A stretch of DNA of 64,000 nucleotides, taken from assembly GCA_041658605.1 (NCBI GenBank), contig JBAZZU010000003.1, forward strand, positions 23,354 to 87,353, read 5' to 3'. The notes beneath the pieces were generated by a model. The model was not told the origin of the DNA, searched no databases, and saw only the letters and a list, made by a program, of their open reading frames with translations. The stretch comes from Thermoleophilia bacterium (lineage in GTDB: Bacteria; Actinomycetota; Thermoleophilia; BMS3ABIN01). Positions 5,639 to 57,597 of this stretch are shown here, piece by piece (the first letter of the stretch is position 1; the number at the start of each line of letters is the position of its first letter). Position numbers and translations under genes: made by a program.

Positions 5639-6013
5639 ATGGCAACCAAGCATTTCGCGATCCGCATCATCGCCGAGACCTCCGACGACACGACCGACAC
5701 GCCGGTGATCTGGGTAGACAAGACCTTCACGCTCGACGGCTACACCGCGAAGGAAACCAAGGACCTCGTTCTTGGTCCTACCGCTGCGGATCAGATCCTC
5801 ACGATTCCCGACGCCTGCGGCATCGTCATCCTCTCCGAGGACTACCCCTTCTCGGTGCGGCTTGCGTCCGCGCAGAAGCTGGTGGGCCCGGTACTCTTCT
5901 GGTCTTCGATCGCGTCCGATACCGACGACAAGATCATCGACGTTTCCGTGCTCCTCACGGGCAACGGCACGAACGCCGCAGCCCTCAAGATCCTGGTGCT
6001 CGACCAGACCTAG
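5639..6013 (+). CDS. Hypothetical protein (124 aa)
   Basis: ORF immediately after the MuF-like gene (stop ATAG-ATG). Confidence 0.45.
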   Translation: MATKHFAIRIIAETSDDTTDTPVIWVDKTFTLDGYTAKETKDLVLGPTAADQILTIPDACGIVILSEDYPFSVRLASAQKLVGPVLFWSSIASDTDDKIIDVSVLLTGNGTNAAALKILVLDQT

Positions 6014-6064
6014 CCGCGAGATCGCGGCCTCTTACTCCCCTCCCCGAACCTCAAAGGAAAAACC

Positions 6065-8524
6065 ATGCAGTCCGCTCTGACCACCAATGAACTCAACCTC
6101 CTGAACGGCTCCGTTCCCGGTGGCCCTCTGGGCATCCGGTCCAAGGAGATTCTTCTCGGAACCCGCCTCTTCGACCTCGAAGCCGTGGTTCGCGTCGTTC
6201 TCGACGGCGACGTGCCGATCACGATCGCCAACAACACCGCCGGAGTCCTTTCCGCCGGAACCCTGGTCGCCGTGCCCACCTCCTGGGACGCTGCCAACGG
6301 CGCCCCGGATGCGGTCAAGGCGGACGCTGACAACATTGCGCTGACCGCTACCCACGTCGTGATCGCCGACATCGCCGTCGGTGAGACCGGCCTCGCCCGT
6401 GGCGCGTGGCTCCAGGAAAACATCGACACCTCGGCCTATTCCGCTGCGGACGTGGCCCTCTACCTCTCTGCCGTCGCTGGTGGCGTGGTCGAGTCCGCTC
6501 CGACCGGTGCAACCCAGTTCCAGCAGATCGTCGGTCTCGTCGGCGTCAAGAGCGCGACCCTCGGGTCCATCTTCTGGTGCCCCGGCTACGGCAAGGTCGG
6601 CAAACAGGGAACCGCCTTCCTCCAGGACCTCGCGGTCACGGCGGACAAGATCGCGCTTGCCCAGGGCCGAATCCTTCGCGGCAAGAGCGACGGATCCGGC
6701 AAGGCCGAAGCGCTCGACCTGCACGTCGCGGATACCATCCCCGTCGGAAACGGAACGGACGTGGTCGGCATGGTACTTCCCACCACGGGGATCGTCGCCA
6801 AGACGGCCGCCGGTGCCGCCTCTGGGCGAACCATCACCGCAGGCTCCCTCTCCCTCTCCGTCACGAACGGTGATGGCGTCGCGGGCAACCCCACGATCGA
6901 CACGGCGCAGGACATCCGGTCCACTGCTACGCCCACGTTCGCGGGCCTCGAAATCACTGGGGACCTTGTCGTCAAGGGTGACTCGATCATCGCCGACATC
7001 GAGCACGTCCAGATCGAAGCCAACTACATCGTCCAGAACACCGGATACAGCACGAACGTAGCGGTCACCGGCGGCCGGGTGGTCAACTACCTCCCGACGG
7101 CCACCCAGACCACCACGGTCGGTTCGGGTGTCTTCACCCCGGGCGTGCTGGCCACCTCCGATCCGACGGTCACCACGGCGGGCGCGGCAACCTTCGCTGC
7201 CTCCGACCTGGTGCTGTTCTCCGGTGCCGCCGAAGAGAAGAACAACGGGATCTTCGAAGTCCTGACCCATGCGGCCAACCTCCTCACGATCAAGTCGAAC
7301 TCCGGCCTGACTCCCGAGGTCGAAGCCTGGACTGATGGCCAGTTCATCGCCGATACCGATGTCGGCGTGACCATCACGAAGGTCAACGTCACGGTCGACC
7401 GGGTGGGCGTGGACGGCCTCGTCGAACATGGCAAGGGCTCGGCCACCCCGATCGTCTTTTCGGATACGGTTCTCAAAAGCGACCTCACCCCGACCCCAAG
7501 CACAGTCATCCCGGCGGCGGTTTCTGGTGGCGCAAGCGGCCTGCTGACCGGCGGTGACAAGGCCTCGCTCGACTCCCTGGTCACCGGTGGCGCGGGCTTC
7601 TGGAGCGACACGGCGGACGGTGCGATCGCCGTCGCTCGGTTTGTCGAGATCGACGCGGGCGGAAACACCGTCGCGGGATCGATCGGTTCGGACTCGGTGG
7701 TTGGCGCTGGCTTGAACGCTGCGCCGGTCGTCGGTACGGACCCGATCGTCGTCGGCATCGGCAAGCGGTCGCTGGTTGCGGCTGACGCAATCCTGGCTGG
7801 GCAGGAACTCAAGTGCGCCGAGGACGGGATGGCCATCTCCGCGGTCACTTCGAACAACGGGCTCGCCAGTGCAACCATCGGCGGCGGCACGGGCATCGAG
7901 TACACGAACCAACCCGCGAATGACCAGTTGACGATCGAATCCTCCGACGCGGCTGACACTGCCGTTCCGATCACGATCATCGGTACCACGTTCGGTGGTG
8001 TCGTTGTCAGTGAGGAAATCAAGAGCACCGACGGCGCGAACGGAACCACCCCGGTGGACTCCGTGAAGAACAACTGGGGCCTCATCCTGGCCTTCAAAAA
8101 GCCGGTCACGGCAGGAACGATCACGGTCAAGGAGAAGTCGGGCGGTTTGACGATCCGAGTCATTCCTGCGCTTTCGACGACTGACGCCGTGATCGCCGTA
8201 GCCGCCGGGAACCAACAGGCGTACAACAATAAGCCTGAATTCGCCGCGGATGCCGGTACCACGAAGGTGATCGGGTTCAAGCGGATCGCCACCACGGGCA
8301 CAACCGAGACCTACGAAGCGGCCACGCTCAACGGAACGGCGAAACAGAAGCCGGCCACCGCGTCCCGCCGGGTGACGGAACTCTACGTCGGCGACCTCGA
8401 AGCGGCGCGCACCCTGACGGTGACCACCACGGCCACGGCTGACGCCCAGGAGATCCGCACCGGTCGCGCCTACTCCGCTGCGGCGGCTCGCGGGGATACC
8501 ATCTCGGCGATCGTGCGCCCGTAG
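6065..8524 (+). CDS. Large Ala/Gly/Thr/Val-rich virion-structural-like protein (819 aa), function unknown
   Basis: Strong RBS AAAGGAAAAACC-ATG. Low-complexity beta-rich composition typical of fibre/decoration proteins. Followed by a strong intrinsic terminator. Confidence 0.5.
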   Translation: MQSALTTNELNLLNGSVPGGPLGIRSKEILLGTRLFDLEAVVRVVLDGDVPITIANNTAGVLSAGTLVAVPTSWDAANGAPDAVKADADNIALTATHVVIADIAVGETGLARGAWLQENIDTSAYSAADVALYLSAVAGGVVESAPTGATQFQQIVGLVGVKSATLGSIFWCPGYGKVGKQGTAFLQDLAVTADKIALAQGRILRGKSDGSGKAEALDLHVADTIPVGNGTDVVGMVLPTTGIVAKTAAGAASGRTITAGSLSLSVTNGDGVAGNPTIDTAQDIRSTATPTFAGLEITGDLVVKGDSIIADIEHVQIEANYIVQNTGYSTNVAVTGGRVVNYLPTATQTTTVGSGVFTPGVLATSDPTVTTAGAATFAASDLVLFSGAAEEKNNGIFEVLTHAANLLTIKSNSGLTPEVEAWTDGQFIADTDVGVTITKVNVTVDRVGVDGLVEHGKGSATPIVFSDTVLKSDLTPTPSTVIPAAVSGGASGLLTGGDKASLDSLVTGGAGFWSDTADGAIAVARFVEIDAGGNTVAGSIGSDSVVGAGLNAAPVVGTDPIVVGIGKRSLVAADAILAGQELKCAEDGMAISAVTSNNGLASATIGGGTGIEYTNQPANDQLTIESSDAADTAVPITIIGTTFGGVVVSEEIKSTDGANGTTPVDSVKNNWGLILAFKKPVTAGTITVKEKSGGLTIRVIPALSTTDAVIAVAAGNQQAYNNKPEFAADAGTTKVIGFKRIATTGTTETYEAATLNGTAKQKPATASRRVTELYVGDLEAARTLTVTTTATADAQEIRTGRAYSAAAARGDTISAIVRP

Positions 8525-8539
8525 CGGAGACCTCGACAA

Positions 8540-8579
8540 GGCCCCCATCGGGATCATCCTGGTGGGGGCGTTTTCTTTC
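8540..8579 (+). terminator. Rho-independent terminator after the 819-aa gene
   Basis: 13-bp GC-rich stem (GCCCCCATCGGGAT / ATCCTGGTGGGGGC, two G-U wobbles), 3-nt loop, then GTTTTCTTTC. Confidence 0.6.
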
Positions 8580-8590
8580 AGGAGTTCAAG

Positions 8591-9961
8591 ATGCCCTATA
8601 AAACCGTTCCGAAGCACCTCCACGGCTTGACCCTGGCCCAGGCCAACCGCTGGGGGTCCGTGTTTGATGCGGTTCAGGGCTCCACTGGCGACTCCGAGAA
8701 AGCGGCTCGGGTGGCTTGGGGGGTGATGAGGAAGGCTATCATGGCGGTCCGTGTTCCAGGCCATACCAGAAACGGACACTATGTGAAACCCTACCTGCGG
8801 ATGATGGACCGCGCCGAGGCCCAGGCGGGACCAGGCGAGCGCATCGTTTACCGGGCGTCCAACGAGAACGCTCCCGAGGTCGGTACGCACTACACCGAGC
8901 AGAAGGAGCACGCGGTCGCCTACACCGATAATTCTGGTTTCGGTGGCTCAAAGGTCCATCGGTACGCGATCAAGCCGCAGAACGTGGCGGATACGGTCGG
9001 GGAGGAAAGGAACGGTCTTCGAGGACTGGCGCTTGCCTACCTGCGGGCGCTCGACCCTGAAGACGCGGCAGAGGTGAAGGAGAAGACCAGAAGACGACTT
9101 GGCGTGGATGACGACGAGCGGATCACGTCGAAGCACGTCGCGCAGGATTGGGATGAGCGCGGGCTGACTCATGTCTTCCATGTTCTGGAGCACGATCCCC
9201 GGGTTGAACAGGCGATATCGCAGGTCCACGACTGGATCCGGTTTGAGGATGATTTCCCCGAGGGGTCGATTACCTGGAAGCGTCTTGGTGGAGAAAAGCC
9301 GATGAACAAGGGTCTTGTACTGGAGGCCTCAGATACCAACCCCGCAGTCAAGCGCTGGAAGCAGATCGATCGTGGCCACTCCGAGGAAGGGCACCGCTTC
9401 CTTTCGCGGGTCCATGCGGGCGGTGGGCAAATGGCCATCACCCAGGGCCATGCGGACGAGCCGCACGTCAAGAGGCTCCTTCGAGAAAAGTTGATTCAAC
9501 TCAAGAGGAACCCGGGTCACCACTGGAACGAGTACACGGCGCACCTCACGAAGGAGGGCACGAAGTACCATGAGGCCTATCGAGCCGCGCACGAGCAGAC
9601 AGGAAAGCAGGAGAGCCTGTTCAAGGGCGTGGTCTGCATCTACATGATCCGCAGTGACACGATGAGGAAAAGCATCCTTGAGAAGGCGGTTATCCCGGCG
9701 CTCGACATGGTTCCGGAGGACTTGGAGGAAGACGCTACCCCGAACACCTGGACCGAGAACGGGTATACCGTCTCATGGCGACGGGGCAAGCGCGGGCATG
9801 GGTCGGTTACCTTCGAAGGGAACGGGCTGGCTATGCCGTTCGTGATGACCGCTGCGGGCAAGAAGCACGCTCGGATCGTCGCAAGGGACGCGTCGGCGCT
9901 GTTGGCGAAGGGCAAGATCCCGCTTCTTGACGGGGTATTCAGGATGCGGAGAAAGACATGA
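8591..9961 (+). CDS. ChaB-domain protein with long C-terminal extension (456 aa)
   Basis: N-terminus MPYKTVPKHLHGLTLAQANRWGSVFDAV...AARVAWGVMRKA matches the ChaB family signature (MPYKT...LP...AQ...AW.AVK). AGGAG RBS. ATGA overlap with the next gene. Confidence 0.55.
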   Translation: MPYKTVPKHLHGLTLAQANRWGSVFDAVQGSTGDSEKAARVAWGVMRKAIMAVRVPGHTRNGHYVKPYLRMMDRAEAQAGPGERIVYRASNENAPEVGTHYTEQKEHAVAYTDNSGFGGSKVHRYAIKPQNVADTVGEERNGLRGLALAYLRALDPEDAAEVKEKTRRRLGVDDDERITSKHVAQDWDERGLTHVFHVLEHDPRVEQAISQVHDWIRFEDDFPEGSITWKRLGGEKPMNKGLVLEASDTNPAVKRWKQIDRGHSEEGHRFLSRVHAGGGQMAITQGHADEPHVKRLLREKLIQLKRNPGHHWNEYTAHLTKEGTKYHEAYRAAHEQTGKQESLFKGVVCIYMIRSDTMRKSILEKAVIPALDMVPEDLEEDATPNTWTENGYTVSWRRGKRGHGSVTFEGNGLAMPFVMTAAGKKHARIVARDASALLAKGKIPLLDGVFRMRRKT

Positions 9962-11769
9962 ACCAGATCGCGAATCAGCCGGGCGTTCATCTTGACCATT
10001 TGAAGCATAGGTGGGTTCGAGATGAGGACGTGAAACCAGGCACGCGGTTTTATGTGCCTCACCATGAGGAATTGGACGTTCGGTCTGTCAAAGACGGGAA
10101 GGCAGAGGTGGGTTTGGTTGGCCACCCCATCACTGTGGACGTGCCTGAAAAGTCGGTGAAGTACTTTCATGCAGACATGCATGGGCAGTTGAACCACAAG
10201 CCCGATAGTGGCAACGAGCATGTTGACGCCGTAATTAGAGGGGAGGGTGAACACCTCGGCAAGGGCAACGACGGGATCGTTTATCGCCACGGGGAGAAAG
10301 TGGTCAAGGTCTCAACGACCGTCCCTTACCAGCCCTTCAACCGTGGGCAGCACAGGACTCCAGAGGAAGCCCTACGGCATCTTCAAAAGGAGCACGAGGC
10401 CCATACGGCACTCCAGGGGATTCCTGGCGTGCCCGAAGTGGATGGGCAAGAGCATGAGGGGCGATACTGGATGGTTAAGCCGCATCTTTCGCCTACTGGC
10501 GTGGTCGATGAAAAAGAAGCACATCAGGTGCGCGATTCCGTCCGGGCCATGCACGCGAAGGGATGGGTTCTGGGCGATACCGTGCAGGTTGGCCGAGACA
10601 AGTCGGGCGGCATCCAGTTCATGGACCTCGGGTCTGCTCACAAGTCGGATAGCGACTACCAAAGAGAGCACGACGAAGAAAGGTTGGCCTCGTTCTTCCA
10701 TCTTCATCGGTTGAAGTACACGGATCCCCCTGCTGAAGTACAGAAAAAGGAGCGGGTAGCACGCACTCTCCTGGACATGGCCATCAAACACCAGGATCCG
10801 GAAAAGGTCAGGGCGCATCGTATTGAGTGGAAACGACTGGCGAGCGAACACAGGATGAACCTCGTCAGAAAAGACGACTTCGACGGGATGATGGCGTTTG
10901 CGGACATTACCGATGCGATGGAGAAACGGCTTGAAAAGGCCATCTTCCTCAACGGCCAAAAGCGCAACCCCAAGGACTTCGACGAAGCCGCCCTATCTCA
11001 AGGCATCCGCGTGGAGATGGAGCACACCGACGATCCGAAGATCGCGATAGAGATCGCGATGGATCACCTTGCCGAGCGTCCGGACTACTACGATCGGCTG
11101 GAAGAGATGGAAGCGAAGCCGATTCAAAAAGCCATCCTCTCCGGGATCCGCTTTATGTACCTACTACGCAAGTCTCAGCTCAACCTCTTCGACTGGCACG
11201 GCGAACCCGTCCAGCACGAGCACCGCGAGCCGATCCCCACCAGGCCACGCATGGGACCGGGCCCCCTGTTCGCCGAAGAGCGAGCGTCGGCGCCCGTGCA
11301 TGCCCCGCTGCCCCCTATGCCTCCTCCGACCTCGCACACCTTCACCTCCAATATTCACGTCAAGAGCCACCTTCGGCGCCTGCCGTCGGGTGAAGTGGTG
11401 GAGGTAGCCGCGCACGAGAGAACAGCCGATCGGGTAACCCACGACGATCCGAAGCCCCGGCAGACGAAGATCACAGAGTACGCCGACAAGCCGGCGCTCT
11501 TGAAGCCGCCTTCCATGGCACCGCAGCCCCGAGAGATGCCGAAGCCCTTCACGGAAGAGCAGTTAAAAGCGATTGGAGAGGCACGGGTGCGCCAAGAGGC
11601 GGCCGGCGGAACTCCGGGACAAGGAAGGCCCTGGGTACGATGGCCCAGCCAACCAGCGCCTCTCTGCTGCGAAAGCGGGGAGACTTGGGCCCGCGCACCG
11701 GGCAGCGGCAAAGAGCGCCCCGTGGACCTCGCAGGGCGTCCTGCTCCGATGGCAGCAACTGGCGATTGA
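9958..11769 (+). CDS. Protein-kinase-like domain protein carrying a QLNLF motif
   Basis: Gly-rich loop GEGEHLGKGNDGIVYRHGEKVVKV (GxGxxGxV...VxK), hinge-like RYWMVKPHL, degenerate catalytic loop HAKGWVLGD and DLG (DFG-like) motif. QLNLF at aa ~407. The last ~65 aa of this frame have low GC3 and are probably not coding. Confidence 0.5.
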   Translation: MNQIANQPGVHLDHLKHRWVRDEDVKPGTRFYVPHHEELDVRSVKDGKAEVGLVGHPITVDVPEKSVKYFHADMHGQLNHKPDSGNEHVDAVIRGEGEHLGKGNDGIVYRHGEKVVKVSTTVPYQPFNRGQHRTPEEALRHLQKEHEAHTALQGIPGVPEVDGQEHEGRYWMVKPHLSPTGVVDEKEAHQVRDSVRAMHAKGWVLGDTVQVGRDKSGGIQFMDLGSAHKSDSDYQREHDEERLASFFHLHRLKYTDPPAEVQKKERVARTLLDMAIKHQDPEKVRAHRIEWKRLASEHRMNLVRKDDFDGMMAFADITDAMEKRLEKAIFLNGQKRNPKDFDEAALSQGIRVEMEHTDDPKIAIEIAMDHLAERPDYYDRLEEMEAKPIQKAILSGIRFMYLLRKSQLNLFDWHGEPVQHEHREPIPTRPRMGPGPLFAEERASAPVHAPLPPMPPPTSHTFTSNIHVKSHLRRLPSGEVVEVAAHERTADRVTHDDPKPRQTKITEYADKPALLKPPSMAPQPREMPKPFTEEQLKAIGEARVRQEAAGGTPGQGRPWVRWPSQPAPLCCESGETWARAPGSGKERPVDLAGRPAPMAATGD

Positions 11770-12466
11770 CCCTCGCCTGTTGGATGATGAGTTCGCCGAC
11801 GACTTCCCCGGATACAAGAGCCCGAAGCTCCAGGCGGTCATCCAGGCCACGAAGGACCACCTGACGAATCACCCCGAAACCGGCGCCGTGCTTTTCTGTG
11901 AGTACAACGGCGGGATTGAGGCGATGAAGTCGAGCCTGATCGAGGAAGGCTACCGCCCCGAGGACATCGGGGTCTATACGGGCAAGGTGTCAAGCCAGCG
12001 GAAACGGCGCGACCTTCAGAACGACCTGAACAGCGGCAAGATCAAGATCCTCCTTGGCAACACGGCGGCACTTGAGACGGGCGCGAACCTCCAGAAACGC
12101 GCTAACTTTGTCGCTCATCTCAACACGCCATGGGCCCCGGATCGGCTTGTCCAGTCAACCGGGCGAGTCCATCGGCAAGGGCAGGAACGGAAGGTTACCG
12201 TATTTCGCCCGACCGGATCCGAGGTAGAAGAACTCATCGAGCGCGTTGTCTCGCGCAAGCTCCTTCAATCCTCACAGGCGACCGGCGTAACGATGGCCGC
12301 TGACTCTCATGTAGCTGTCTCCATGCGCCGAAAGGGCCGCGAAAAGCTCGACTCCTCCACGATCGCGAAACTGCTGGGAATCGACCCGTCGCTGTTGTCG
12401 CAGAAGGGCGATGAAGCAGAACGCGAGGCCGCAGAGATCAAGGAAATGAAGAAGAGGAAGAAATGA
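11573..12466 (+). CDS. SNF2-family helicase C-terminal lobe (orphan, possibly fused to upstream ORF by frameshift)
   Basis: Helicase-C motifs GKIKILLGNTAALETGANL and QSTGRVHRQGQ (motif VI). No SNF2 N-lobe upstream in any frame. TTG start right after an in-frame TAA. Overlaps 9958..11769 by 197 nt. Confidence 0.5.
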   Translation: MERHGCAKRRPAELRDKEGPGYDGPANQRLSAAKAGRLGPAHRAAAKSAPWTSQGVLLRWQQLAIDPRLLDDEFADDFPGYKSPKLQAVIQATKDHLTNHPETGAVLFCEYNGGIEAMKSSLIEEGYRPEDIGVYTGKVSSQRKRRDLQNDLNSGKIKILLGNTAALETGANLQKRANFVAHLNTPWAPDRLVQSTGRVHRQGQERKVTVFRPTGSEVEELIERVVSRKLLQSSQATGVTMAADSHVAVSMRRKGREKLDSSTIAKLLGIDPSLLSQKGDEAEREAAEIKEMKKRKK

Positions 12467-14184: not shown

Positions 14185-14186
14185 TC

Positions 14187-14465
14187 GTGCTGCTTCTTTT
14201 CGTTCTCCTCCTCTCCTGCGCCCCAGAACCGCCAGAAGTCTGCAATATGGTCTCCGTGCCCTGGGAGCGCTCGACGCTCAAGGCGATCGAGGTTTACCTC
14301 GACTACCTGCCCTGTGAGGCCACGATCGGCTGCGAGTCGCTTAACGGGACCGTGACGATTTACGACCTGGAGCCCGTTTGCGGAGTCGCCTGCCGGGTAT
14401 ACGGATCCTGCCGCCCGGACGAAACGCCGCTGGAACTTCGATACTCCGCGTGCGACTGCTCATAG
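14187..14465 (+). CDS. Cys-rich putative lipoprotein (92 aa)
   Basis: GTG start. Signal peptide LLLFVLLLSC with lipobox L-L-S-C. 9 further Cys. Tail-to-tail 6-nt overlap with the antisense methyltransferase. Confidence 0.4.
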   Translation: MLLLFVLLLSCAPEPPEVCNMVSVPWERSTLKAIEVYLDYLPCEATIGCESLNGTVTIYDLEPVCGVACRVYGSCRPDETPLELRYSACDCS

Positions 14466-15653: not shown

Positions 15654-15660
15654 ATCCGGA

Positions 15661-16158
15661 ATGGACCTCTTCAACCATCAAGGCGCCGTCTTCTCGGAGG
15701 ATCGCGTCTACCGCTATCGGCTCTGGCGGCATCCTCCTGATACCCGGTTCGCCGCGTTCATCGGGCTCAACCCGAGCACCGCTGACGAAACCCAGAACGA
15801 CCCGACCGTGACCCGTTGTATCGGGTTCGCTCGGTCGTGGGGTCTTGCGGGCATGGAGATGTTGAACCTTTACGGGTTTCGCTCGACGGATCCCGATCCG
15901 ATGTTCAAGCACTCTGCTCCTATAGGACCGGGCAACGACGAGGCGATCCTGGCGGTCGCTCGTGAGGCGTCGATCGTGATCGGCTGCTGGGGCGCGTTTC
16001 CTCAAGCCCGCATCCGTGCTATCGAGGTTCATAGGATGCTTTCCTCTGCCGGTATCGTGCTTCATGCTCTGCAATTGACTTCGCAGGGTTGGCCTCGGCA
16101 TCCTCTCTACCTCTGCCGAGACCGGGAGCCCTTTCCATGGAGGATCCCTGCGGGGTAA
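15661..16158 (+). CDS. DUF1643-family protein
   Basis: YRYRLWR...FIGLNPSTADETQNDPTVTRCIGFA...NLYGFRSTDP...CWGAF closely matches the DUF1643 signature as I recall it. ATG at 15661 inside track ORF 15553..16158. Confidence 0.6.
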   Translation: MDLFNHQGAVFSEDRVYRYRLWRHPPDTRFAAFIGLNPSTADETQNDPTVTRCIGFARSWGLAGMEMLNLYGFRSTDPDPMFKHSAPIGPGNDEAILAVAREASIVIGCWGAFPQARIRAIEVHRMLSSAGIVLHALQLTSQGWPRHPLYLCRDREPFPWRIPAG

Positions 16159-16184
16159 AGAGGTAACACCATTCGAGGGTTCCC

Positions 16185-18518: not shown

Positions 18519-18521
18519 CCC

Positions 18522-21500
18522 ATGTTCACCCCCTGCAAGTGCTCCAAAGGCTGCAAGGCCCACGCCATCATCACAGCGCTCGACATGGACGGGACCACCT
18601 ACCCTGTGCGAGTCCCCTATGAGCACCGCTACTCCTCGATCGGCTGGGGCGACCGTCCGCGCGTGCGGTTCGGTGATTCCGTAGCCGTCGAAGTGGCGCG
18701 CGGAGAGAAGGGCGTCCAGGCTCTTGACGAACTCGGCAACCTTCACCGGTTGAACCATGGCGCGTTCTCCACCTGGATTCCGGAAAGGAAGGGCAAGGCT
18801 CTCAAAAAGGCGGAAGTCAAAGCCGGTCAACGATGGATCACGGTCCACCCCGGCGGCGAAGGCTCAACGGGCGTCCCCATCCTGATTCAGGAGGAGAAGG
18901 ACGGAACCCACCGAGTCGTGGCAGGCGCGGGCGGGAAACTGACGCACCTCCGGCTTGAGAACGTCAAGAGCGCGGACGAATACGCCAAGTCCAAAGCCGA
19001 CAAGAAGGCCGCAAAGAAAGAGAAGGACAAGACCGCTCCGAAGGAAGTCAAGGAGACCAAGAAGGAAGCCCACGAGAAGAAGCGCGAGGCCGAGCGCCAG
19101 TTCGTCAAAAAGGTGAGCACGAAACTCGGGGGAGTCTCCGAGGATCGCAAGCGTGACGAATCCGAATCTCCCGCCGTCGCACGTCGGCTTGACGCGCAGC
19201 ATCATCGAAAGCAGGTCAACGAGGCCAAGAAGCGCGCCCACGGAGCCATGCAGGCGGTCGTTGCAGAGCGGACCGGGCAGGAGAGGGCAAAGGCGCTCAC
19301 CTCCGAGGATACTCCCGAGGTCTCCGCTCACGTTCAGGAAACGATTCGCGCAGAACTCGACGACGAGGAAGCCGCTCAGAAGGCGCGCAAGGAAGCCCGC
19401 GCGCCAAAGATGATGGCCTCCCGGGCCGTGGACCCCGGAGCGCAAGAGAAAGCCGTCGTCCATGCCGTTGAAGCGGTCAAGCAGGCCCCTGAGCAGCTCG
19501 ACAAGACACTTGAAGCGCTCGGCGGGCGTACTGACTCGGGCGAGGTTCTCCGGCTCTCTGTCGTGCCTGCCGTGGAGGCGAAACGCCGGTCCCTGCAAGC
19601 GCTCCAGGACGCCCAGATCATCCATGAAGCCCTATCGAACGGGCCCCCGAAAGACGAGAAGCAGCAGGCGATCGTGGAGCAGGCCCTGGGCGGCGCGAAA
19701 CTCGGAACCGAGGAGGCCAAGGAAGCACTCCAGACCGCCATGGTCTCGAAGGTCAACGAAGCCGAGCGGCACGAAGTCCAGTCCAGGAAGCTCGACCAGA
19801 TCGCACGGGACAAGGGCGAAGACGTGGCCGACCGTGCTCTCCGGGCGACCGACGCGGCAAGGGCCATCGCTCGCGAAACACAGGAAGCGCGGCGCCTGGG
19901 ACTCGACAATCCCGAGAAGACGCCCCTTACTGTGCCTGAAACCGATGAACTCATGGACGTGGTGAAGGACCTCCAGGACCTGAAAGCGAAGACCCGAGCC
20001 CTGAAGAACGTCGTCAAGGACGCGGAAAAGGGCAACTTCGATCGGTCGCGCCGTGCGTTCAAGATGGACGTTCAAGCGGCCCCCAAAGACGTGGAGATGT
20101 CGATCGAGGAAGAGGTTCAGCGCTCACTCACGGAGCAGCTCCTCGGCGCGGTCAAGACCGATCGCCCGGAGTACATCCAGGGCGTCACCGCTGGGCACTA
20201 TGACGCCCTCGCGGATGTCGGCTTGCAGATTGGCGGCCAGCGCTACCTGGACCGCCCCACGGTGGACGCTCTCGGCGCGAAGAATGCCGCGATCCTACTC
20301 CGGTATGGGCTTGACCAGGACGGGCACGATATGGACGCCGTTCGCCAGGCCGTGGAAGAGTCGCACGTTGACGCGGTGAAAACCGAAGCCGCCAAAGCCA
20401 TCGAGAAAGCGCGATCCTACGTCCCTGGGTTGGTCCACGAAGTCGATACAACCGAAGACGCCGAAGCAGCAATGGCGCACTTGGACGCCCACGAATCCGA
20501 GATCGTCTCAGCGCAGAAGGCCCTTTCCTCGGCGATCGGGAGGCTCGAAGGTACGGCTACCCTTGGCCAGGCGCTGCGCGACAAGATGCCCGATAGCCTT
20601 TCCGTTCGGGGCACCTCTCTTGAATCGTCTCAGCAGTGGGTTCATTCGCTCGGGCTTCACCCTGCCGATTACGAGGTGAACGCTGCACGGAACGAGATTA
20701 CGATCCCCCGCCGATCGTGGGACAAACTGCTATCCCGAGACTCGCGCGAGGACATCGACAACCGGCGCGTGGTCAACGAGATCAAGGCAGGTCAGCACGA
20801 CATCAAGGGTTGGCTTCCTCCCGGCATTGCCTATCGAGAGGCCTCCACGTTCACCGCGCCCGTTCCCAGCGCTCCTCGCATGTGGGAACCGCTTTCGTTC
20901 GATGGCGACCTCGACGAGGCCATCAAGACACACGTCGGCGCCCGGTTGGCATCCGGTGAGCATATCGGGGAGATTGCGTCTGACATCTCCTCGGAAGGTG
21001 TTGCTTCGCAGGCCCCGAGCGCGAAGGAATACCGCGCGGCACTCGAGCGGCACTTCCCTCTCTACAAGGAAGGTGGAAAGGAACGGCTCACCGAAGCCCT
21101 GGCGGCTCTTGGACCTCGGCCGGAGAACGAGAACGAGGCGATCGAGTGGGACCGAAAAGCCATTAAGGCGGAGCAAGCGGAAAAGGTAGGCCTGACGCAC
21201 TTCGCCGACAAGTGGGAGTCCTGGGCCCAGGACTACATGGAAAAGAAGCACGGTGGCGAGGGAGCCTATCACTCGCAGAACCTGCATCCCGAGGACGTGG
21301 CGACCCGTGAGGCCATTTTCCGGACGCTGGCGGATCACCCGGAGGGCAAGATCGCCTTCAAGCCGTCGGGTCAACTGACACCGCAGGAAGAGGGGGTGAT
21401 TCGGGACCGGTACTATCAGAGGATGGGGATCGACCCGAAGGTGAAGGTTGACGAGGCAAGGTTCCAAAGGGAGATGGCCCAGGCCAGTATGCCGGAAGGG

Positions 21501-24224
21501 CAGTGGGAGACCATGGTCAAGGAACACGAAGGAGAAGGCATAACTCCAGGGCAGGCCAAGGCCCGAGCCATGTCTCACCTTGGAGAGAAGGTCAAGAATG
21601 AGGCGTATTACCAAGAACTGACGAAACCATGGGACAAGACGGCTGGAACTGCATCTATAGACGAACCAAAGGATGTAAAACAACGTCGCCAATACCTGAC
21701 GCGCGAACTCGCCGCACTCGGGAAAGAGCCCGACCGCCAAGACAAAGAGGCCAACCAGAAATGGCAAGAAGCGCGTAATGCTGTTTTTGAAAAGGCCGAC
21801 ACCGATTCTGGCAAGGAAGAACTTGATGAGACCAGTCCCGAATACCGGGCTTGGCAAAAACGACGTGATGCTGTTCTTGCCCGTCATCCGCGAGCGGGTA
21901 TGCAAAGCGCAATCGATAGTCTCGACAAAGCCGATCCGGAGTACGCAAGCAAAGTCGAAGCCATCAAACAGGACGCAGCGACCGCCCCCACCGCCTGGGG
22001 CAACTACGTTGAAGCGCACGGTTCGCGGCAACTGGCGATCGAGGCCCTGCAAGATGAGATGAGGGGCGAATTCGTCAAGACGTACCAGGAGCACCACGGA
22101 AAGGTCACCGGGAACCCGCTACGGGTGGGCGTTCAGGACGTAACCAACAAGGCGCGCCATATCCGGGCAACAGGATCCCCCGAGGAAATCGCGCAAGCCA
22201 GGGCAGAGGAAAGGTCCAGGCTATCCAGTCTCCAGAAGAGGCAGGGCGGCGGATTTACCGAGATGGGCGGTGCAGGGTCGGCGAAAGCCCTGTTCACAAA
22301 AGCACTTGAACAAGACGAAATCGACAAGTCAAGTCAACTCGCTATGTTCGGATCGGCTACCTCCTCGGTGGCGGACCTCCCCGAAAAGAAGATCGAGCCG
22401 AAGACCGGCCAGCGGTGGAGTCTCGGAACCCGCGCGGAATCGCAACTTGAGAGCGTCATCAATGGCGGCCTGGGCCAGCAGTTTCAACCAGGAAGCCCGA
22501 TCCGGCTTTTCGGTGGGCTCAACATGGATGGCGATCGAATCCACCAGCAGCGGGTTCTTCGCCAACTCGATCGGGTCAAAAGGATGGCGGCGCTTCTCGG
22601 CACGGGCGCGGGGAAGTCGCTCACCTCGATCGCAGGGTTCACCCAGGCGCACGCGAAGGGTGAGGCATCCCACGGGCTCTATCTGGTCCCTGCCGCAGTC
22701 CAAGACCAGTTCGGCGGCGAGATGTTGCGCTACACGCAGCCCGGGAAATACAACTGGGCAACGGGTGGCGGAAAGAGCCACGCGGAACGGGTACGGATGC
22801 TCAAGGATCCGTCTATTCATATGCGGGTTATGACACACCAGTCCTTCCGGGATACTGCCCTAAAACTCATGGCAGACCACCATGGTCGGACTACCGAGAA
22901 GATGACAGAGGACTTCGGAAAGGCAGACCCAAAGACCCGCGCCCGGTGGATGCGTGAGGCCTTCGATGCCCACGGGATCCCCCGCCACTTCGTCTATTAT
23001 GACGAGGCGCACACCGCGACCTCCGAGAACGAGAAGAGCGCCTCTCTGACTCATGACGTTGCGACGGCGGTAACGCATCCGTCGAACGCTACCCATCTGC
23101 TTCTCGGGACCGCCACCCCCACGAAGAACAACACCGGAGAGATGCACTCATGGGCCTCGCTACTCGATCCGGACAAGTACGCCGATCGGTGGAAGTTCAT
23201 GCAGAACTTTGGGAGGGAAACCGCCTGGAACCCGAACGCGATCCGTCAAGAACTTGGGCACCGGGTTTACACCGCCAGAATCGACCCCGAAGGAGTATCC
23301 CGAACAGACACCGACAACCCGACCGTGGAGGAAAAGGAAGTCCAGACTGGTGAGAATATGTGGGGTCCAACCTACGAAAAGCAGAAGGTGAAGTCTGCCG
23401 GCAAGCCGATCGAACTTCACCCTACCCAGAAGGCCCGGGTAGATGAGATCACGGCGGCTTATGAGCAGGCATCCACCTCGTTCAAGAAGGGCCATGTGGA
23501 CGTGGAGAGCATCCGGAAAATCAACCCGGCACCGTTCGAGGGTAAGACCGATGAGCAGGCCCAAAGCATCGCGCGGAACATGATGAAGGGCCTTGGCTTC
23601 ACCCGTGACGCGGCGCTGGAGCGGGCGATCAACCGCTCGCCTGTGGGCCAGAACGCGAAACTGGACGCCCTGGCCTCTGTCGTCCAGCATGACCTCGCGC
23701 AGAACTGGACCGATCGGAAAGGCAACGCGCGCAAGGGGAAGGCCTCGATCATCTTTTCGGACTCGGCGCAGGATGGAAAACTCATCAACCAGCACCTTCG
23801 CTCTCTTGGCGTCCGCTCGGCTTTCTATCACGGTGGGCTTCCGAACGAGCAGAAAGAAGCCATCCGCACCGGGTTCCAACCCGAGCAAGGCGAGCCGAAG
23901 CACGACGTTATCGTCGCCACGTCGGCGGCCGAGGCGGGTCTGAACCTCCAACGGGCAAGCGTGCTGCACAATTACGACGTGCCCCAGACTGAGAAGAGCC
24001 ACGCGCAGAGAGCCGGGCGAGCGTACCGGCAGGGGCAACTTGGCGACGTGGAGATTCACAACTGGCACACGAACACGGCGTTCGAGCGTCGGGCGCTTCA
24101 ACTGCTCAAGGAGAAGCGGTATCTCGCTTCCGTGTTTCAGACTCCGATCGGCCATATGGACGACACAGGAACGGGCCTGCGTTATACTCGGATCATCTCA
24201 CGCAAACATGAGGCTGCGGCATGA
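18522..24224 (+). CDS. Giant 1900-aa protein with C-terminal SNF2-family helicase (polyvalent/DarB-like)
   Basis: Complete SF2/SNF2 core: Walker A GTGAGKSLT, DEAH (YYDEAHTA), motif III LLGTATPTKNNTGEMHSWASLLDP, helicase-C with QRAGRAYRQGQ. Long Lys/Glu coiled-coil N-terminal 1300 aa. QLAMF motif just before the helicase. Confidence 0.7.
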   Translation: MFTPCKCSKGCKAHAIITALDMDGTTYPVRVPYEHRYSSIGWGDRPRVRFGDSVAVEVARGEKGVQALDELGNLHRLNHGAFSTWIPERKGKALKKAEVKAGQRWITVHPGGEGSTGVPILIQEEKDGTHRVVAGAGGKLTHLRLENVKSADEYAKSKADKKAAKKEKDKTAPKEVKETKKEAHEKKREAERQFVKKVSTKLGGVSEDRKRDESESPAVARRLDAQHHRKQVNEAKKRAHGAMQAVVAERTGQERAKALTSEDTPEVSAHVQETIRAELDDEEAAQKARKEARAPKMMASRAVDPGAQEKAVVHAVEAVKQAPEQLDKTLEALGGRTDSGEVLRLSVVPAVEAKRRSLQALQDAQIIHEALSNGPPKDEKQQAIVEQALGGAKLGTEEAKEALQTAMVSKVNEAERHEVQSRKLDQIARDKGEDVADRALRATDAARAIARETQEARRLGLDNPEKTPLTVPETDELMDVVKDLQDLKAKTRALKNVVKDAEKGNFDRSRRAFKMDVQAAPKDVEMSIEEEVQRSLTEQLLGAVKTDRPEYIQGVTAGHYDALADVGLQIGGQRYLDRPTVDALGAKNAAILLRYGLDQDGHDMDAVRQAVEESHVDAVKTEAAKAIEKARSYVPGLVHEVDTTEDAEAAMAHLDAHESEIVSAQKALSSAIGRLEGTATLGQALRDKMPDSLSVRGTSLESSQQWVHSLGLHPADYEVNAARNEITIPRRSWDKLLSRDSREDIDNRRVVNEIKAGQHDIKGWLPPGIAYREASTFTAPVPSAPRMWEPLSFDGDLDEAIKTHVGARLASGEHIGEIASDISSEGVASQAPSAKEYRAALERHFPLYKEGGKERLTEALAALGPRPENENEAIEWDRKAIKAEQAEKVGLTHFADKWESWAQDYMEKKHGGEGAYHSQNLHPEDVATREAIFRTLADHPEGKIAFKPSGQLTPQEEGVIRDRYYQRMGIDPKVKVDEARFQREMAQASMPEGQWETMVKEHEGEGITPGQAKARAMSHLGEKVKNEAYYQELTKPWDKTAGTASIDEPKDVKQRRQYLTRELAALGKEPDRQDKEANQKWQEARNAVFEKADTDSGKEELDETSPEYRAWQKRRDAVLARHPRAGMQSAIDSLDKADPEYASKVEAIKQDAATAPTAWGNYVEAHGSRQLAIEALQDEMRGEFVKTYQEHHGKVTGNPLRVGVQDVTNKARHIRATGSPEEIAQARAEERSRLSSLQKRQGGGFTEMGGAGSAKALFTKALEQDEIDKSSQLAMFGSATSSVADLPEKKIEPKTGQRWSLGTRAESQLESVINGGLGQQFQPGSPIRLFGGLNMDGDRIHQQRVLRQLDRVKRMAALLGTGAGKSLTSIAGFTQAHAKGEASHGLYLVPAAVQDQFGGEMLRYTQPGKYNWATGGGKSHAERVRMLKDPSIHMRVMTHQSFRDTALKLMADHHGRTTEKMTEDFGKADPKTRARWMREAFDAHGIPRHFVYYDEAHTATSENEKSASLTHDVATAVTHPSNATHLLLGTATPTKNNTGEMHSWASLLDPDKYADRWKFMQNFGRETAWNPNAIRQELGHRVYTARIDPEGVSRTDTDNPTVEEKEVQTGENMWGPTYEKQKVKSAGKPIELHPTQKARVDEITAAYEQASTSFKKGHVDVESIRKINPAPFEGKTDEQAQSIARNMMKGLGFTRDAALERAINRSPVGQNAKLDALASVVQHDLAQNWTDRKGNARKGKASIIFSDSAQDGKLINQHLRSLGVRSAFYHGGLPNEQKEAIRTGFQPEQGEPKHDVIVATSAAEAGLNLQRASVLHNYDVPQTEKSHAQRAGRAYRQGQLGDVEIHNWHTNTAFERRALQLLKEKRYLASVFQTPIGHMDDTGTGLRYTRIISRKHEAAA

Positions 24225-24385
24225 AGATGAGAAAGAAAAAAGTAGACTTCTCAGCGGTAATCCGGCCAGTCAAAGAAGAAACTTCCTCGCACTTCGGATC
24301 GCGTGTCGTCGATATACGGTGTGTAGATTTCTCGGTTGACTCGATCCGTGCGTTTATCAAGCGGATGGAGCAGGAACCACTATGA
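24221..24385 (+). CDS. Small AT-rich ORF (54 aa), translationally coupled
   Basis: ATGA overlaps at both ends (giant gene stop and next gene start). Not in ORF track (<60 aa). GC much lower than surroundings. Coordinates approximate. Confidence 0.3.
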   Translation: MKMRKKKVDFSAVIRPVKEETSSHFGSRVVDIRCVDFSVDSIRAFIKRMEQEPL

Positions 24386-24624
24386 ACGACCGACAAGAGA
24401 TGATCAAACTCCTCGCGTCTCTGGAGGCCAACAAGCAGGCAATCCAGGGCGCAAGAAAGGACCTGGCCCGGGAATGCTCCGAGCGTCAGGATGCCGTGTC
24501 TCCTGCCCTGGAAACGATCGGCGAGCACCCCGACATGGAAGACGCGGGGATCCTCGGGCACCGCTACCACAAGACGATTCTGGCCGATCACCATGCGCTT
24601 GGCGAACTGGCGCGCCGTGGCTGA
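24382..24624 (+). CDS. Hypothetical protein (80 aa)
   Basis: ATGA-coupled ORF. Confidence 0.4.
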   Translation: MNDRQEMIKLLASLEANKQAIQGARKDLARECSERQDAVSPALETIGEHPDMEDAGILGHRYHKTILADHHALGELARRG

Positions 24625-24853
24625 CCTGTCGGCGTTCAAGATCCGATGTCCTGCCTGCGGTTACGATATGTGGGCCGTGCGCGCGGGTCAGTGGACGCTC
24701 AAAACCGCTATTATCCGGGTGGACGACGGGGTCTTCATTGCACGATGCCCAGAAGGGCGGTGCAAAGGTGAAGCCGTGGTCCCGATGGTTCTCCTGCACT
24801 CCGACGCTACCCGCCGAATTGTGAGAATTCGAAAAAACAGCGCTGAGGTATAG
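24617..24853 (+). CDS. Small zinc-ribbon protein (78 aa)
   Basis: GTG overlapping the upstream stop. CPACGYDMW...CPEGRC motifs. Confidence 0.3.
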   Translation: MADLSAFKIRCPACGYDMWAVRAGQWTLKTAIIRVDDGVFIARCPEGRCKGEAVVPMVLLHSDATRRIVRIRKNSAEV

Positions 24854-24891
24854 CCGGGCAGTCTGGTCCGAACCTCTCACGGCCCACCCAC

Positions 24892-24932
24892 GGCCCTACC
24901 CGGATCCCCTCCCGGGTAGGGCCTTCTTTTGT
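24892..24932 (+). terminator. Rho-independent terminator before the head module
   Basis: Perfect 11-bp stem GCCCTACCCGG / CCGGGTAGGGC, 8-nt loop, then CTTCTTTTGTTGG. Coordinates +/-1. Confidence 0.55.
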
Positions 24933-25726
24933 TGGTACTCATGTCGATCCCCTTCGAACTCTCCGGATCCCTCCTCGCTCGCCCGCTCCGAAAAGCGGTG
25001 AGCGCGCGGACTCGTCCGCTTGAAGGGTTCCTGACTACCTACGGCGTACTCAGCGAAAACGGCGGGATCATCCCGACCGCTGACCGAGACGGGCAGGTCA
25101 TGGAAGCCGCCTCTGCTCTGGGGCTCATCGACTTTCAGGAGTACCTCCGAACCGGGCTCTGGAACGATACCCACGATGACACCGTGATTGTAGGGCGCTC
25201 CGATGGCCTGGAGTTTCACAACGGCTCGACGAAGTTGTCACAGGCTCACCGGAAGGTCGGCTACTTCACGGCCGGGCACTTGTTCGACCCTGCGAACCCG
25301 GCTTCTTTCGGGGACTACAAGCCCTCGCCAAAGGAACTGGAACGCTCGGACTACTTCTGGGACCTCGCCAGCAGTACCCTGGGCGAAACCGATCGCGGGT
25401 TGGCTTTTTCGGCTCATGGCCGGATGTGGACCGACCCGACAAATACCAGGATTTTGACGGCGAAGATTGATCAGGTGGCGGTCTGCGAAACCCCGGTCAA
25501 TCCCTACTGTCCTGCCGAGATCCCCGAAGTGTCGGCTGAACTTGCGAAGGCGGTCAAGAAGCCGACTGCTTCCTCTTTGCTTGCTTCCCTCAAACCGGAG
25601 ACGCGGGAAAAGCTGGTCGCCATCATCAAGAAGCGTTTCCCCCATCTGTCAGACGCGGAGATCGATACCGTTCTTCTGAAACTGGCAGAAAACCACCACT
25701 ATGGAGTAAAATCCGATGCCCAATGA
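24929..25726 (+). CDS. Prohead protease, HK97 (U35/S78) family
   Basis: WNDTHDDTVIVGR resembles the catalytic-His block of HK97 gp4 (LWQHNPDQPIGRV). Candidate Ser in GLAFSAHG. Followed by scaffold and MCP. Confidence 0.55.
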   Translation: MLVLMSIPFELSGSLLARPLRKAVSARTRPLEGFLTTYGVLSENGGIIPTADRDGQVMEAASALGLIDFQEYLRTGLWNDTHDDTVIVGRSDGLEFHNGSTKLSQAHRKVGYFTAGHLFDPANPASFGDYKPSPKELERSDYFWDLASSTLGETDRGLAFSAHGRMWTDPTNTRILTAKIDQVAVCETPVNPYCPAEIPEVSAELAKAVKKPTASSLLASLKPETREKLVAIIKKRFPHLSDAEIDTVLLKLAENHHYGVKSDAQ

Positions 25727-55152: not shown

Positions 55153-55169
55153 TTTCTGCTCCCGTCCGA

Positions 55170-57196: not shown

Positions 57197-57198
57197 TT

Positions 57199-57576: not shown

Positions 57577-57597
57577 GTTTCACTTCCTTTCCTCTCT

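Follow-up and report, generated by a model that had tools for sequence, protein, structure and literature searches.

We analysed a 64,000-nucleotide stretch of DNA, referred to here as the window, from a Thermoleophilia bacterium assembly (GCA_041658605.1, contig JBAZZU010000003.1, positions 23,354 to 87,353 of the forward strand) that carries the head-morphogenesis operon of a phage and, within this operon, a block of unusual large genes. The plus strand of the window encodes TerL (2-1609; phrog_675, E 9e-55), the portal, which is the upstream anchor of the head operon (2799-4508), and, directly after the portal, a MuF-like minor head protein of 377 amino acids (aa; 4505-5638). The portal has weak PHROG matches (phrog_11117, E 1.3e-8; phrog_12, E 4e-7) and is matched by tblastn to the annotated portals of Morganella phage Mecenats66 and Bordetella phage PHB04. 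The operon resumes on the same strand with a gene for a prohead-protease-like protein (24929-25726), recognised by its position and by similarity to relatives, followed by genes for a scaffold-like protein (25716-26393) and the major capsid protein (MCP; 26425-28026; phrog_752, E 3.5e-22). Between the MuF-like gene and the protease-position gene are 19.3 kb of DNA (5639-24928). An original prediction, made from the letters of the sequence, had placed an island of about 18 kb in this head module and had read it as a virion-delivered toolkit. The island is real and exceeds what chance would give, and its cargo proper is confined to 8591-24853, about 16 kb of mostly uncharacterised genes between two hairpins that resemble intrinsic terminators. 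The hairpin at the left boundary of this cargo unit (8541-8569, + strand; 13-bp stem, T-rich tail) is directly 3' of a gene for an 819-aa protein, and the one at the right boundary (24892-24923, + strand; 12-bp stem with 10 GC pairs) is directly 5' of the protease-position gene. Every open reading frame (ORF) listed in the prediction is present (proteins of 819, 456, 603, 573, 777 and 1900 aa, a helicase C-lobe, a methylase, and a DUF1643 protein), and three small genes had been overlooked, one for a Zn-ribbon protein at 15438-15653 and two at 24382-24624 and ~24593-24853. The genes between 8591 and 24853 are co-directional with the head genes, the antisense methylase being the sole exception. 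ATGA coupling at almost all junctions was not found. Just five junctions have four-base overlaps between start and stop codons, ATGA in four cases and GTGA in the fifth, and a doubtful 54-aa ORF takes part in one of them.

The largest gene of the island (18522-24224, + strand) encodes a protein of 1900 aa with SNF2-rel_dom and Helicase_C domains at residues 1341-1873, in agreement with the SNF2 assignment made earlier. PF00176 matched with 26.7 bits (cutoff 24.9) and PF00271 with E 3.9e-17. By its motifs the SNF2 ATPase is intact, with GTGAGKS (Walker A), DEAH, and QRAGRAYRQGQ (motif VI). Matches in cultured phages were the "helicases" of PHB04 (ATI15643), Mecenats66 (UIS74621), and the Thermus phages phiMa, Cumys and Lalka, and it was through this protein only that relatives of the phage were reached. 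A tblastn comparison with gp41 of Thermus phage Lalka27a gave E 6e-100 and 31.6% identity over 60% of the query, in three collinear blocks (query residues 94-212, 557-973 and 1159-1886) that correspond to the N-terminal, middle and SNF2 regions. Gp41 was found by peptide mass fingerprinting in virions purified on sucrose gradients and was named large virionic helicase (Lvh), "presumably injected" (bioRxiv 10.64898/2026.04.20.719267). The two proteins are both giant (1715 and 1900 aa), both are encoded in structural gene clusters, and the three homologous blocks of both are an N-terminal domain ("RWITxxP...G..GL..LRL" in Lalka27a), a helical middle and a C-terminal SF2/SNF2 helicase. They differ in that the Lalka27a protein has an extra domain at its start and that its gene is located between tail and baseplate genes rather than between MuF and protease genes; the inspected 31.7-kb stretch around that gene showed no adjacent variable cargo slot. 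Lalka27a Lvh is the sole member of the family with experimental virion detection. On the strength of the alignments, the 1900-aa protein is a member of the Lvh family.

We collected 77 homologs of the 1900-aa protein, many of them on contigs of 80-100 kb. The conserved N-terminal beta domain (RWITVHP...GGAGGKL) is at residues ~100-145 of the window protein, and the motif G.RWITVHPNG...G.P.LI....DG...VIGGAGGKL..LRL is nearly invariant in a 49-member alignment. An AlphaFold2 (AF2) model of residues 90-1280, with a predicted local distance difference test (pLDDT) score of 82, contains a small three-stranded beta unit followed by ~1100 helical residues. Foldseek searches of PDB and BFVD with this model gave no significant match, the proteins returned being generic long-helix ones such as tape measures, all at E>0.001. 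In the window, a Cys-rich N-terminal extension of ~95 aa (MFTPCKCSKGCKAH..., 18522-18790) precedes the WITVHP domain; the Lvh homologs of PHB04 and Mecenats66 do not have it. This extension has weak similarity (E 0.004) to a Cys-rich 92-aa ORF within the island.

The original prediction had compared the island with giant DarB-like proteins. P1 DarB, a virion-packaged antirestriction protein, is likewise giant and contains SNF2; its gene neighbours those for the portal and head processing, with a small gene after it. DarB differs from the 1900-aa protein in having an N6-adenine methylase N-terminal to the helicase, a domain that the 1900-aa protein lacks, and the two align over the helicase motifs only (34% identity over 97 aa). 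The 1900-aa protein was thus rejected as a DarB ortholog. The small gene after it was also rejected as a counterpart of P1 Ulx, since BLASTP found no similarity between Ulx and the 80-aa product.

We compared nine loci that bear Lvh homologs, including L002, L003 (a Nitrosomonas sp. Nm132 contig), L004, L008, L009, PHB04, Mecenats66 and Lalka27a. The original prediction had set a location in the head module against one in early or replication regions. Lvh homologs were inside structural gene clusters in all nine loci inspected and in a replication module in none. In seven of the loci (L002, L003, L004, L008, L009, PHB04 and Mecenats66) the Lvh gene is followed by one or two ORFs of ~90 aa, a ~300-aa protein in the protease position, a ~250-aa scaffold-like protein and a ~500-aa MCP; in Lalka27a it is among tail and baseplate genes instead. 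The order portal, MuF-like, slot, Lvh, two small genes, protease, scaffold, capsid recurs in Mecenats66, PHB04 and the metagenomic relatives. In PHB04 and Mecenats66 it runs from the terminase to the sheath gene, and TerL, portal, Lvh and tail proteins are homologous to those of the window, with the difference that the MCP is below tblastn detection.

Both sides of the slot are conserved at the protein level. On the right, the 80-aa product of the gene directly after Lvh (24382-24624, + strand) is matched by tblastn to the ORF right after Lvh in L002 and L004. The next gene (24593-24853, + strand, start uncertain) encodes a Zn-ribbon protein of ~86 aa that is 43-45% identical to the second small ORF 3' of Lvh in L008 and L009 (E ~6e-16 to 8e-16). 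The protease-like protein is 44-49% identical to the ORF at the same position in L002, L004, L008 and L009 and has a weak match to the "putative prohead protease" of Mecenats66 (27% over 104 aa, pairwise E 2e-5). On the left, the MuF-like protein is 42% identical to the protein at the same position in L004, and the gene directly 3' of it encodes a beta-rich protein of 124 aa (5639-6013, + strand) that is 37% identical to a 126-aa ORF after the MuF-like gene in L004; it had no family match in Pfam, PHROG or NCBIfam scans. The borders of the slot are fixed, with the portal, MuF-like and 124-aa genes on the left and Lvh, two small genes and the protease, scaffold and capsid genes on the right.

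What lies between these borders is different in each phage. The slot is empty in Mecenats66, where the gene for a "putative minor head protein" abuts the helicase gene, and spans ~10 kb in PHB04 and ~7.4 kb in L004. The PHB04 slot encodes a post-portal protein with a RelA/SpoT domain, an HD/RelA protein, a phosphatase, an InPase protein and a methylase-SNF2 protein of 2097 aa; PHB04 slot proteins are recorded as ATI15645-15652. Slots of the metagenomic relatives encode InPase, LPD1, zeta toxin and HD domains and giant SNF2 or methylase-SNF2 proteins; the methylase-SNF2 proteins in relatives' slots are DarB-like and 2097-2119 aa long. InPase, LPD1, RelA/SpoT, zeta toxin and DarB-like domains have been assigned to polyvalent proteins of the phage type, which are predicted to be packaged (PMC5512222). 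The relatives' loci contain no homologs of the cargo proteins of the window, a generic helicase C-lobe excepted, and this C-lobe is all that PHB04 cargo shares with window cargo. The variability that the original prediction had proposed to look for in related phages is thus present, and the region is a hypervariable accessory slot in a head-morphogenesis operon.

The large proteins of the island have a short sequence in common. A count over all frames of the 64-kb window gave five occurrences of the pattern Q[LMIVAT][GSDNA][LM]F, all of them within the island and distributed over four proteins, where shuffled sequences gave an expectation of 0.04. These occurrences, referred to here as the QxxΦF tag, are QLNLF(D) in the 603-aa protein, QLGLFGG in the 573-aa protein, QMGLFGG twice in the 777-aa protein, and QLAMFG at residue 1272 of the 1900-aa protein, ~90 residues before Walker A. 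In the 573- and 777-aa proteins the tag is part of a common module, [KR]-K-[AS]-(A)-Q-[LM]-x-[LM]-F-[GD], followed by a G/P-rich spacer and the basic hairpin V.VK.H.R...G..V.V..H.R. The 603-aa protein has QLNLFD together with the hairpin and a 456-aa protein has the hairpin alone.

The tag also recurs in the relatives, where it is confined to slot proteins and Lvh. Slot proteins carry it in L002, L003, L004, L008, L009 and PHB04. The DarB-like protein of PHB04 starts with MIILLTKAQLALFDTPVHVGAHVRKDGTVVKPHIR and has there the QLALFD + HVRKDGTVVKPHIR form of the module seen in the window. PHB04 proteins contain the candidate clamp-binding peptides KAQLALFDTP, EQAQMGFFSAQDDMFGGG and a C-terminal DSQPSLL, and candidates in the window are KAAQLGLFGG and SSQLAMFGS. 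Among Lvh homologs, QxxΦF was found 50-130 residues before Walker A in 52 of the 71 that have a Walker A motif (expected, 1.4 of 77). In 11 of 77 homologs the exact C-terminus is Q..[LM][FL] (expected, 0.06), for example QGGLF, QDGLF or QANLF. The flanks of the tag are G/P-rich, and in the Lvh model pLDDT is below 50 at model residues 1181-1191, which are also the end of the modelled fragment. The N-terminus of P1 DarB does not have the QxxLF/HxR module.

Proteins that bind the bacterial sliding clamp do so through a motif with the consensus QL(S/D)LF, seen as QLGLF at the C-terminus of Pol II, QLNLF in Pol V and an internal QADMFG in Pol III alpha, and known motifs are placed at termini or in flexible segments (PMC11139829). 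The tag coincides with this motif in sequence, and its identity, conservation and placement are why we propose that it may dock proteins on the clamp. The likeness to the clamp clients Pol II, Pol V UmuC and Pol III alpha extends to QLGLF, QLNLF, QMGLF, QLAMFG and the C-terminal QGGLF and to the terminal or linker position. The differences are that those clients are replication and repair enzymes, whereas the tagged proteins are products of a phage structural module known from sequence, and that the clients have no counterpart of the basic HxR...HxR hairpin often coupled to the tag. Literature searches found no paper in which DarB, polyvalent proteins or phage proteins that are injected had been connected with motifs for clamp binding, and the word "clamp" has 0 occurrences in the polyvalent-protein paper (PMC5512222). 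The QxxΦF tag would be a previously unreported clamp-binding-like address tag in this setting. A tag that targets proteins to the procapsid, or marks a cleavage site, fits less well, because the motif is literally C-terminal in 11 homologs and neither the scaffold-like protein nor the MCP contains it. For the same two reasons, cleavage by the prohead protease seems unlikely. BLAST searches of phage genomes with the tag modules (54-58 aa) returned the query's own record or nothing, the module being too short for BLAST.

The basic motif, [HY]xR-x(2-5)-G-x(2-8)-[HY]xR, recurs in several proteins, with or without QxxLF, and has no Pfam model. Examples are HTRNGHYVKPYLR and HTRVVHGHVIEVKAHDR in the window (8591-18518), YTRQDGTVVSPYYR in the HD/RelA-like protein of PHB04 (L005 9893-10471), and YRRADGTVVRSYHRR in a NUDIX hydrolase encoded upstream of the terminase in Mecenats66 (L006 11868-12611).

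The first cargo gene (8591-9961, + strand) is an ORF for the 456-aa protein with the basic hairpin motif HTRNGHYVKPYLR and had no match in Pfam, NCBIfam, PHROG or PDB. It had been described as a ChaB-domain protein. No ChaB domain was detected by Pfam (E<=5, or E<=1 with the N-terminal 120 aa), NCBIfam or a PDB sequence search. By eye, its N-terminus (MPYKTVPKHLHGLTLAQANRWGSVF...) is similar to that of Lalka27a Lvh (MPWDASHYPPAMKHLPPPVRRLAIRIANALL..., L007 12621-12800). This likeness is what had been called ChaB-like, and no tool found a shared domain.

The second gene (9958-11769, + strand) encodes the 603-aa protein, which has a kinase-like domain at residues ~90-240, DUF5661 at 346-387 (PF18905, E 1.5e-11), QLNLF at 407 and the HxR hairpin at 471. 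Using nine homologs as the alignment, an AF2 model of residues 1-320 reached pLDDT 82. A Foldseek search of PDB with this model gave 430 matches at E<=1e-3, and the best 50 of the 430 were all protein-kinase domains (best E 9.5e-8), with CurKC, CK1 and other kinases at probability 1.00 and E 9.5e-8 to 1e-5. The residues GKGxDG...VKVSTT...H..G....D..Q.G...D.G are invariant in the nine homologs, so that the G-loop, the beta3 Lys, the catalytic Asp and DxG are conserved. The model aligned to kinases across ~160-250 columns, a short alignment that fits the C-terminally truncated kinases described in polyvalent proteins (PMC5512222). Modelling thus confirms the predicted kinase-like character of this protein, whose kinase-like domain is truncated. 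Three features connect the protein with the repertoire of the relatives' slots. Among other proteins, DUF5661 occurs together with InPase and MuF_C in a single protein (P0112) and inside a 2626-aa methylase-SNF2 protein in a phage contig (L011). One homolog from the kinase family starts with MSQIGMFG, and another has an RWVTV motif.

A third ORF (11573-12466, + strand) encodes the C-lobe of an SNF2 helicase and nothing more, as predicted (PF00271, E 5e-12; phrog_10089 "DarB-like antirestriction", E 1.6e-17). In addition, we found that this ORF shares 197 nt with the 603-aa ORF, relative to which it is in the +1 frame. The methylase-SNF2 proteins of PHB04 and L003 (2097 and 2119 aa) align with it over their residues 1354-1590, and a complete SNF2 protein of L002 has a C-lobe to which it is 46% identical. 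Because the ORF aligns to the C-lobe of the relatives' methylase-SNF2 proteins, we assign it by homology to the DarB clade, with the methylase and N-lobe lost. It may be joined to the 603-aa protein through a frameshift. The 603-aa protein combines a kinase-like domain with DUF5661, and with the helicase C-lobe if the frames are joined, and the other cargo proteins have at most one recognisable domain.

The 573-aa protein (12463-14184, + strand) has its QLGLFGG tag at residue 72 and the HxR hairpin at residue 118. Residues 339-372 match DUF5710 (PF18974) at E 4e-5, below the cutoff. DUF5710, a small domain, is found N-terminally in conjugative primases that pass into recipient cells. The pattern Y..YR..IK..GG.WD...+.W.VP is present in two copies, one at residues ~262-300, seen by eye, and one at the DUF5710 match. 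The 777-aa protein (16185-18518, + strand) has QMGLFGG tags at residues 229 and 245 and the hairpin HTRVVHGHVIEVKAHDR; a word-indexed search of 5.8 billion proteins found only the protein itself. These two proteins had been called paralogs. They have in common a linear module of ~100 aa only (37-39% identity, E 2e-8), and no full-length paralogy was found. PDB sequence searches with the 819-, 456-, 603- and 573-aa proteins gave nothing meaningful.

Four further genes are located between those for the 573- and 777-aa proteins. A 92-aa Cys-rich ORF (14187-14465, + strand) with a hydrophobic N-terminus (…LLLSC…) had no family match and, by inspection, is possibly a lipoprotein-like moron. An orphan N6A/N4C DNA methyltransferase with a DPPY motif is encoded on the minus strand (14460-15272; PF01555, E 2.9e-19; phrog_67, E 1.9e-42; PADLOC MTase_II, E 6.5e-50), and a promoter-like site for it, TTGACC-16-TACACT with an upstream TG, is at 15306-15279. 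A 71-aa CxxC...CxxC zinc-ribbon protein (15438-15653, + strand) was read from the sequence and has weak Zn-ribbon matches in Pfam. The DUF1643 protein (15661-16158, + strand) matched PF07799 at E 4e-36 and phrog_3230 at E 3.7e-47, and its gene likely starts at 15661 rather than 15553. The identities of the antisense methyltransferase and the DUF1643 protein are therefore as predicted. All four genes are more likely ordinary morons in the same hotspot than cargo.

The MuF-like protein at the left border had 470 homologs in an exhaustive search. Among 48 distant homologs, two matched PF04233 Phage_Mu_F (best E 1.2e-5) and 16 were fused to InPase. Residues C299, C302, H345, P346 and C348 are invariant (CxxC...HPNC in the window, C..C...HPxC across homologs), and tblastn matched the annotated "minor capsid protein" of Bacillus phage Nachito. 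Hint domains or inteins were found in 10 of the 48 distant homologs and in some Lvh homologs (P0048 and P0059; PF14890 and PF14528), and homing elements are therefore frequent in such head-module genes. The 819-aa protein (6065-8524, + strand) is an ORF rich in T, G, A and V. Its only matches, at residues ~238-299 and borderline (E 8e-4 to 9e-4), are to annotated tail-fibre or structural proteins, and the QxxΦF tag is absent from it. It is probably a fibre-like structural protein and not an effector. Because the left terminator-like hairpin follows them, the 124- and 819-aa genes were assigned to the portal/MuF unit.

Genes downstream in the window match the tail genes of the relatives, including one for a sheath-sized 597-aa protein, and the phage is therefore most likely an uncultured myovirus, distant kin of Mecenats66 and PHB04. 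Megablast of positions 1-25 kb and tblastn with the MCP found no match in the phage collection, and single-sequence scans of IMG/VR with the portal and MCP found none. A tRNA scan found no tRNA gene within the island; one tRNA-Ala (TGC) gene is at 52850-52921 on the minus strand, and Lalka phages integrate at a tRNA-Ala gene. The gap between terminase and portal (1610-2798) is 1.19 kb in the window and ~60 nt in Mecenats66. It contains a 75-aa ORF (1788-2015, MRTFKQLRKARGITQTELS...) that by eye resembles a helix-turn-helix regulator, which is unusual within a packaging operon, and one or two uncertain small ORFs. A minus-strand cluster (53348-62616) encodes radical SAM (53348-54241) and DUF5131 (54190-55152, E 9e-76) proteins, a ResIII/Helicase_C helicase (57893-59875), a C5 cytosine methylase (60721-61749) and ThyX (62035-62616), and could form a module for DNA modification and nucleotide metabolism. 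Together with the one in the island, this brings the methylases of the phage to at least two.

We consider it moderately likely that the slot is a hypervariable cargo cassette from which Lvh and the tagged large proteins are delivered by the virion and injected with the DNA. A part of the block is probably injected because the anchor protein has a Thermus phage relative that was found in virus particles, and this detection of Lalka27a Lvh is the sole experimental datum that bears on, and supports, the idea. The toolkit proposed originally is best supported for Lvh and the tagged large proteins and not for the whole 18 kb; the Lalka27a homolog and the polyvalent domains in relatives' slots agree with it, and the 819-aa protein, the methylase, the 92-aa ORF, the Zn-ribbon protein and the DUF1643 protein are probably not cargo. 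By extension from Lalka27a, we suggest that Lvh, and probably the 456-aa, 603-aa/C-lobe, 573-aa and 777-aa proteins, would enter the procapsid near the portal and MuF-like protein and be ejected with the DNA. In the new host, the SNF2 motor could translocate on the incoming dsDNA and displace or outrun restriction enzymes and other DNA-bound host proteins, and the kinase-like and other cargo proteins could modify host targets. The Q-x-x-[LMF]-F tag, which often precedes a basic V.V.aH.R..G..V.V..H.R hairpin, may dock Lvh and cargo on the host clamp on DNA. That the tags are genuine clamp-binding motifs, so that the clade packages and injects an SNF2 translocase of 1500-2000 aa and changeable effectors (kinase-like proteins, DarB-like methylase-helicases, RelA/SpoT-type proteins and others) all addressed to host DnaN by a common tag, is a suggestion drawn from sequence that we make tentatively and with more doubt than belief.

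Several points weigh against virion delivery and clamp docking. Presence in the virion is known for one distant homolog, which is ~30% identical and whose gene belongs to a tail cluster, not to a head cluster. The Mecenats66 paper contains no mass spectrometry. The MuF-like protein, which the original prediction took as a landmark, keeps its position and its CxxC...HPNC motif, and its family match is sub-threshold (TIGR01641, SPP1-gp7; E 0.0035, 17.7 bits, curated cutoff 39.65), with no Pfam match even at E<=5. No window protein has a Pfam match to LPD, InPase, ART or MPTase, so that the grounds for labelling the window cargo "polyvalent-type" are its context, DUF5661, the kinase fold and the tag. 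A helicase C-lobe is unable to hydrolyse ATP alone, and the C-lobe ORF may be a decaying remnant. Clamp docking by the tag is a hypothesis based on motif identity, conservation and placement. Because the tag module of the 573-aa protein and that of the 777-aa protein have a common ancestry, the tag occurrences are less independent than they seem. Finally, the Lvh of Mecenats66 lacks the motif, and that of Lalka27a has a degenerate QALLL at the position of QLAMFG.

The alternative that survives best is that the slot is simply a permissive insertion site between two terminators, a hotspot for morons and anti-defence genes whose products other than Lvh are not packaged and act only in the producing or lysogenic cell. 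Genes that are not of the cargo type are present in the slot (the antisense methylase with its promoter-like site, the Cys-rich ORF, and the Zn-ribbon and DUF1643 genes), and because of these moron-like genes the hotspot explanation is at least partly true. Cargo that is unrelated between relatives is also what a recombination hotspot would give. As an account of the large proteins we think it unlikely. The tag they carry is also present in Lvh and in the relatives' DarB-like proteins, the domains in relatives' slots belong to the packaged polyvalent repertoire (PMC5512222), virion and assembly genes flank the slot on both sides, and all but one of its genes are co-directional.

A second alternative, which we regard as improbable, is that Lvh and the tagged proteins are late factors for replication, recombination or packaging that work on clamp-loaded DNA in the producing cell, for example by clearing proteins or branches ahead of the terminase, and that Lvh in virions is carry-over. 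Motifs like those that bind clamps are typical of replication and repair proteins (PMC11139829), the SNF2 ATPase motifs are intact, and the gene is near the terminase, portal and MuF genes. A simple remodeler would leave unexplained the ~1250-aa non-enzymatic helical N-terminus and the invariant beta domain of Lvh. Furthermore, Lalka27a Lvh is a virion protein whose gene has tail and baseplate genes as neighbours, and the phage encodes a separate helicase in its minus-strand cluster (57893-59875).

PADLOC matches to DrmD, BrxH, ZorD and DpdE/F on the helicase C-lobes, and to MTase_II on the methylase, raise the thought of an anti-phage defence system of the DISARM, BREX or Zorya kind, with an SNF2 helicase and a methylase forming a prophage island. 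The helicase matches cover just the generic Helicase_C region of ~100-140 aa, no system-specific partner (DrmB/C, BrxC/PglZ or ZorA/B) was found, and the other eight proteins scanned had no PADLOC match. The SNF2 gene is moreover a conserved core of the head module that is kept even when the slot is empty. With matches limited to the C-lobes and the methylase, we rejected such a system as very improbable. Least probable of all is an assembly chimera or mis-binned bacterial DNA in a phage contig: the contig, whose source metagenome is ERZ27247322, was deposited within a Thermoleophilia metagenome-assembled genome (MAG) and had no nucleotide match in the phage collection, but proteins identical to those of the window are recorded in NCBI, JGI, Logan and ENA assemblies (longest contig 96.7 kb, labelled Thermoleophilia MAG), the contig is phage-like with a G+C content of ~60% that is uniform across the borders of the region, and cultured phages show synteny with the window at either border and at the anchor gene, so that synteny and independent assemblies make this explanation unlikely.

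Among known systems, the polyvalent proteins of phages and conjugative elements (PMC5512222), together with MuF-fused effectors, are close to the slot. Both are linked to portal, terminase and MuF genes and include SNF2 domains and truncated kinases, to which the relatives' slots add InPase, LPD1, RelA/SpoT and zeta toxin, and for both the prediction is packaging and early delivery. They differ in that polyvalent proteins fuse their domains in one polypeptide, whereas in the window the functions are spread across ~10 separate genes, and in that no zincin peptidase for processing was found in the window. The large cargo proteins of the window are separate genes from a polyvalent-type repertoire and not one giant polypeptide. 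What is new with respect to P1 DarB, polyvalent proteins and Lvh is a multi-gene hypervariable cassette of largely orphan cargo, bordered by the MuF-like gene on one side and the conserved gene for Lvh on the other.

Proteins injected with phage DNA decide the first minutes of an infection and are hard to spot from sequence. The loci compared here offer a positional rule, by which cargo would be sought in the interval from the MuF-like gene to that for Lvh, in a clade with cultured members that infect Bordetella and Morganella. They also offer a candidate tag, QxxΦF alone or with the HxR hairpin, by which such cargo, mostly orphans, could be recognised. Should the tag fail to bind the clamp, the region is still a well-delimited hypervariable cassette of cargo and morons in a head operon. 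If it does, the clamp would be a new host hub exploited at genome entry, and a mechanism would be suggested for the uncharacterised Lvh family. The sliding clamp would then be a general docking hub for virion-delivered proteins, and the tag would provide a signature for injected effectors in uncultured phages.

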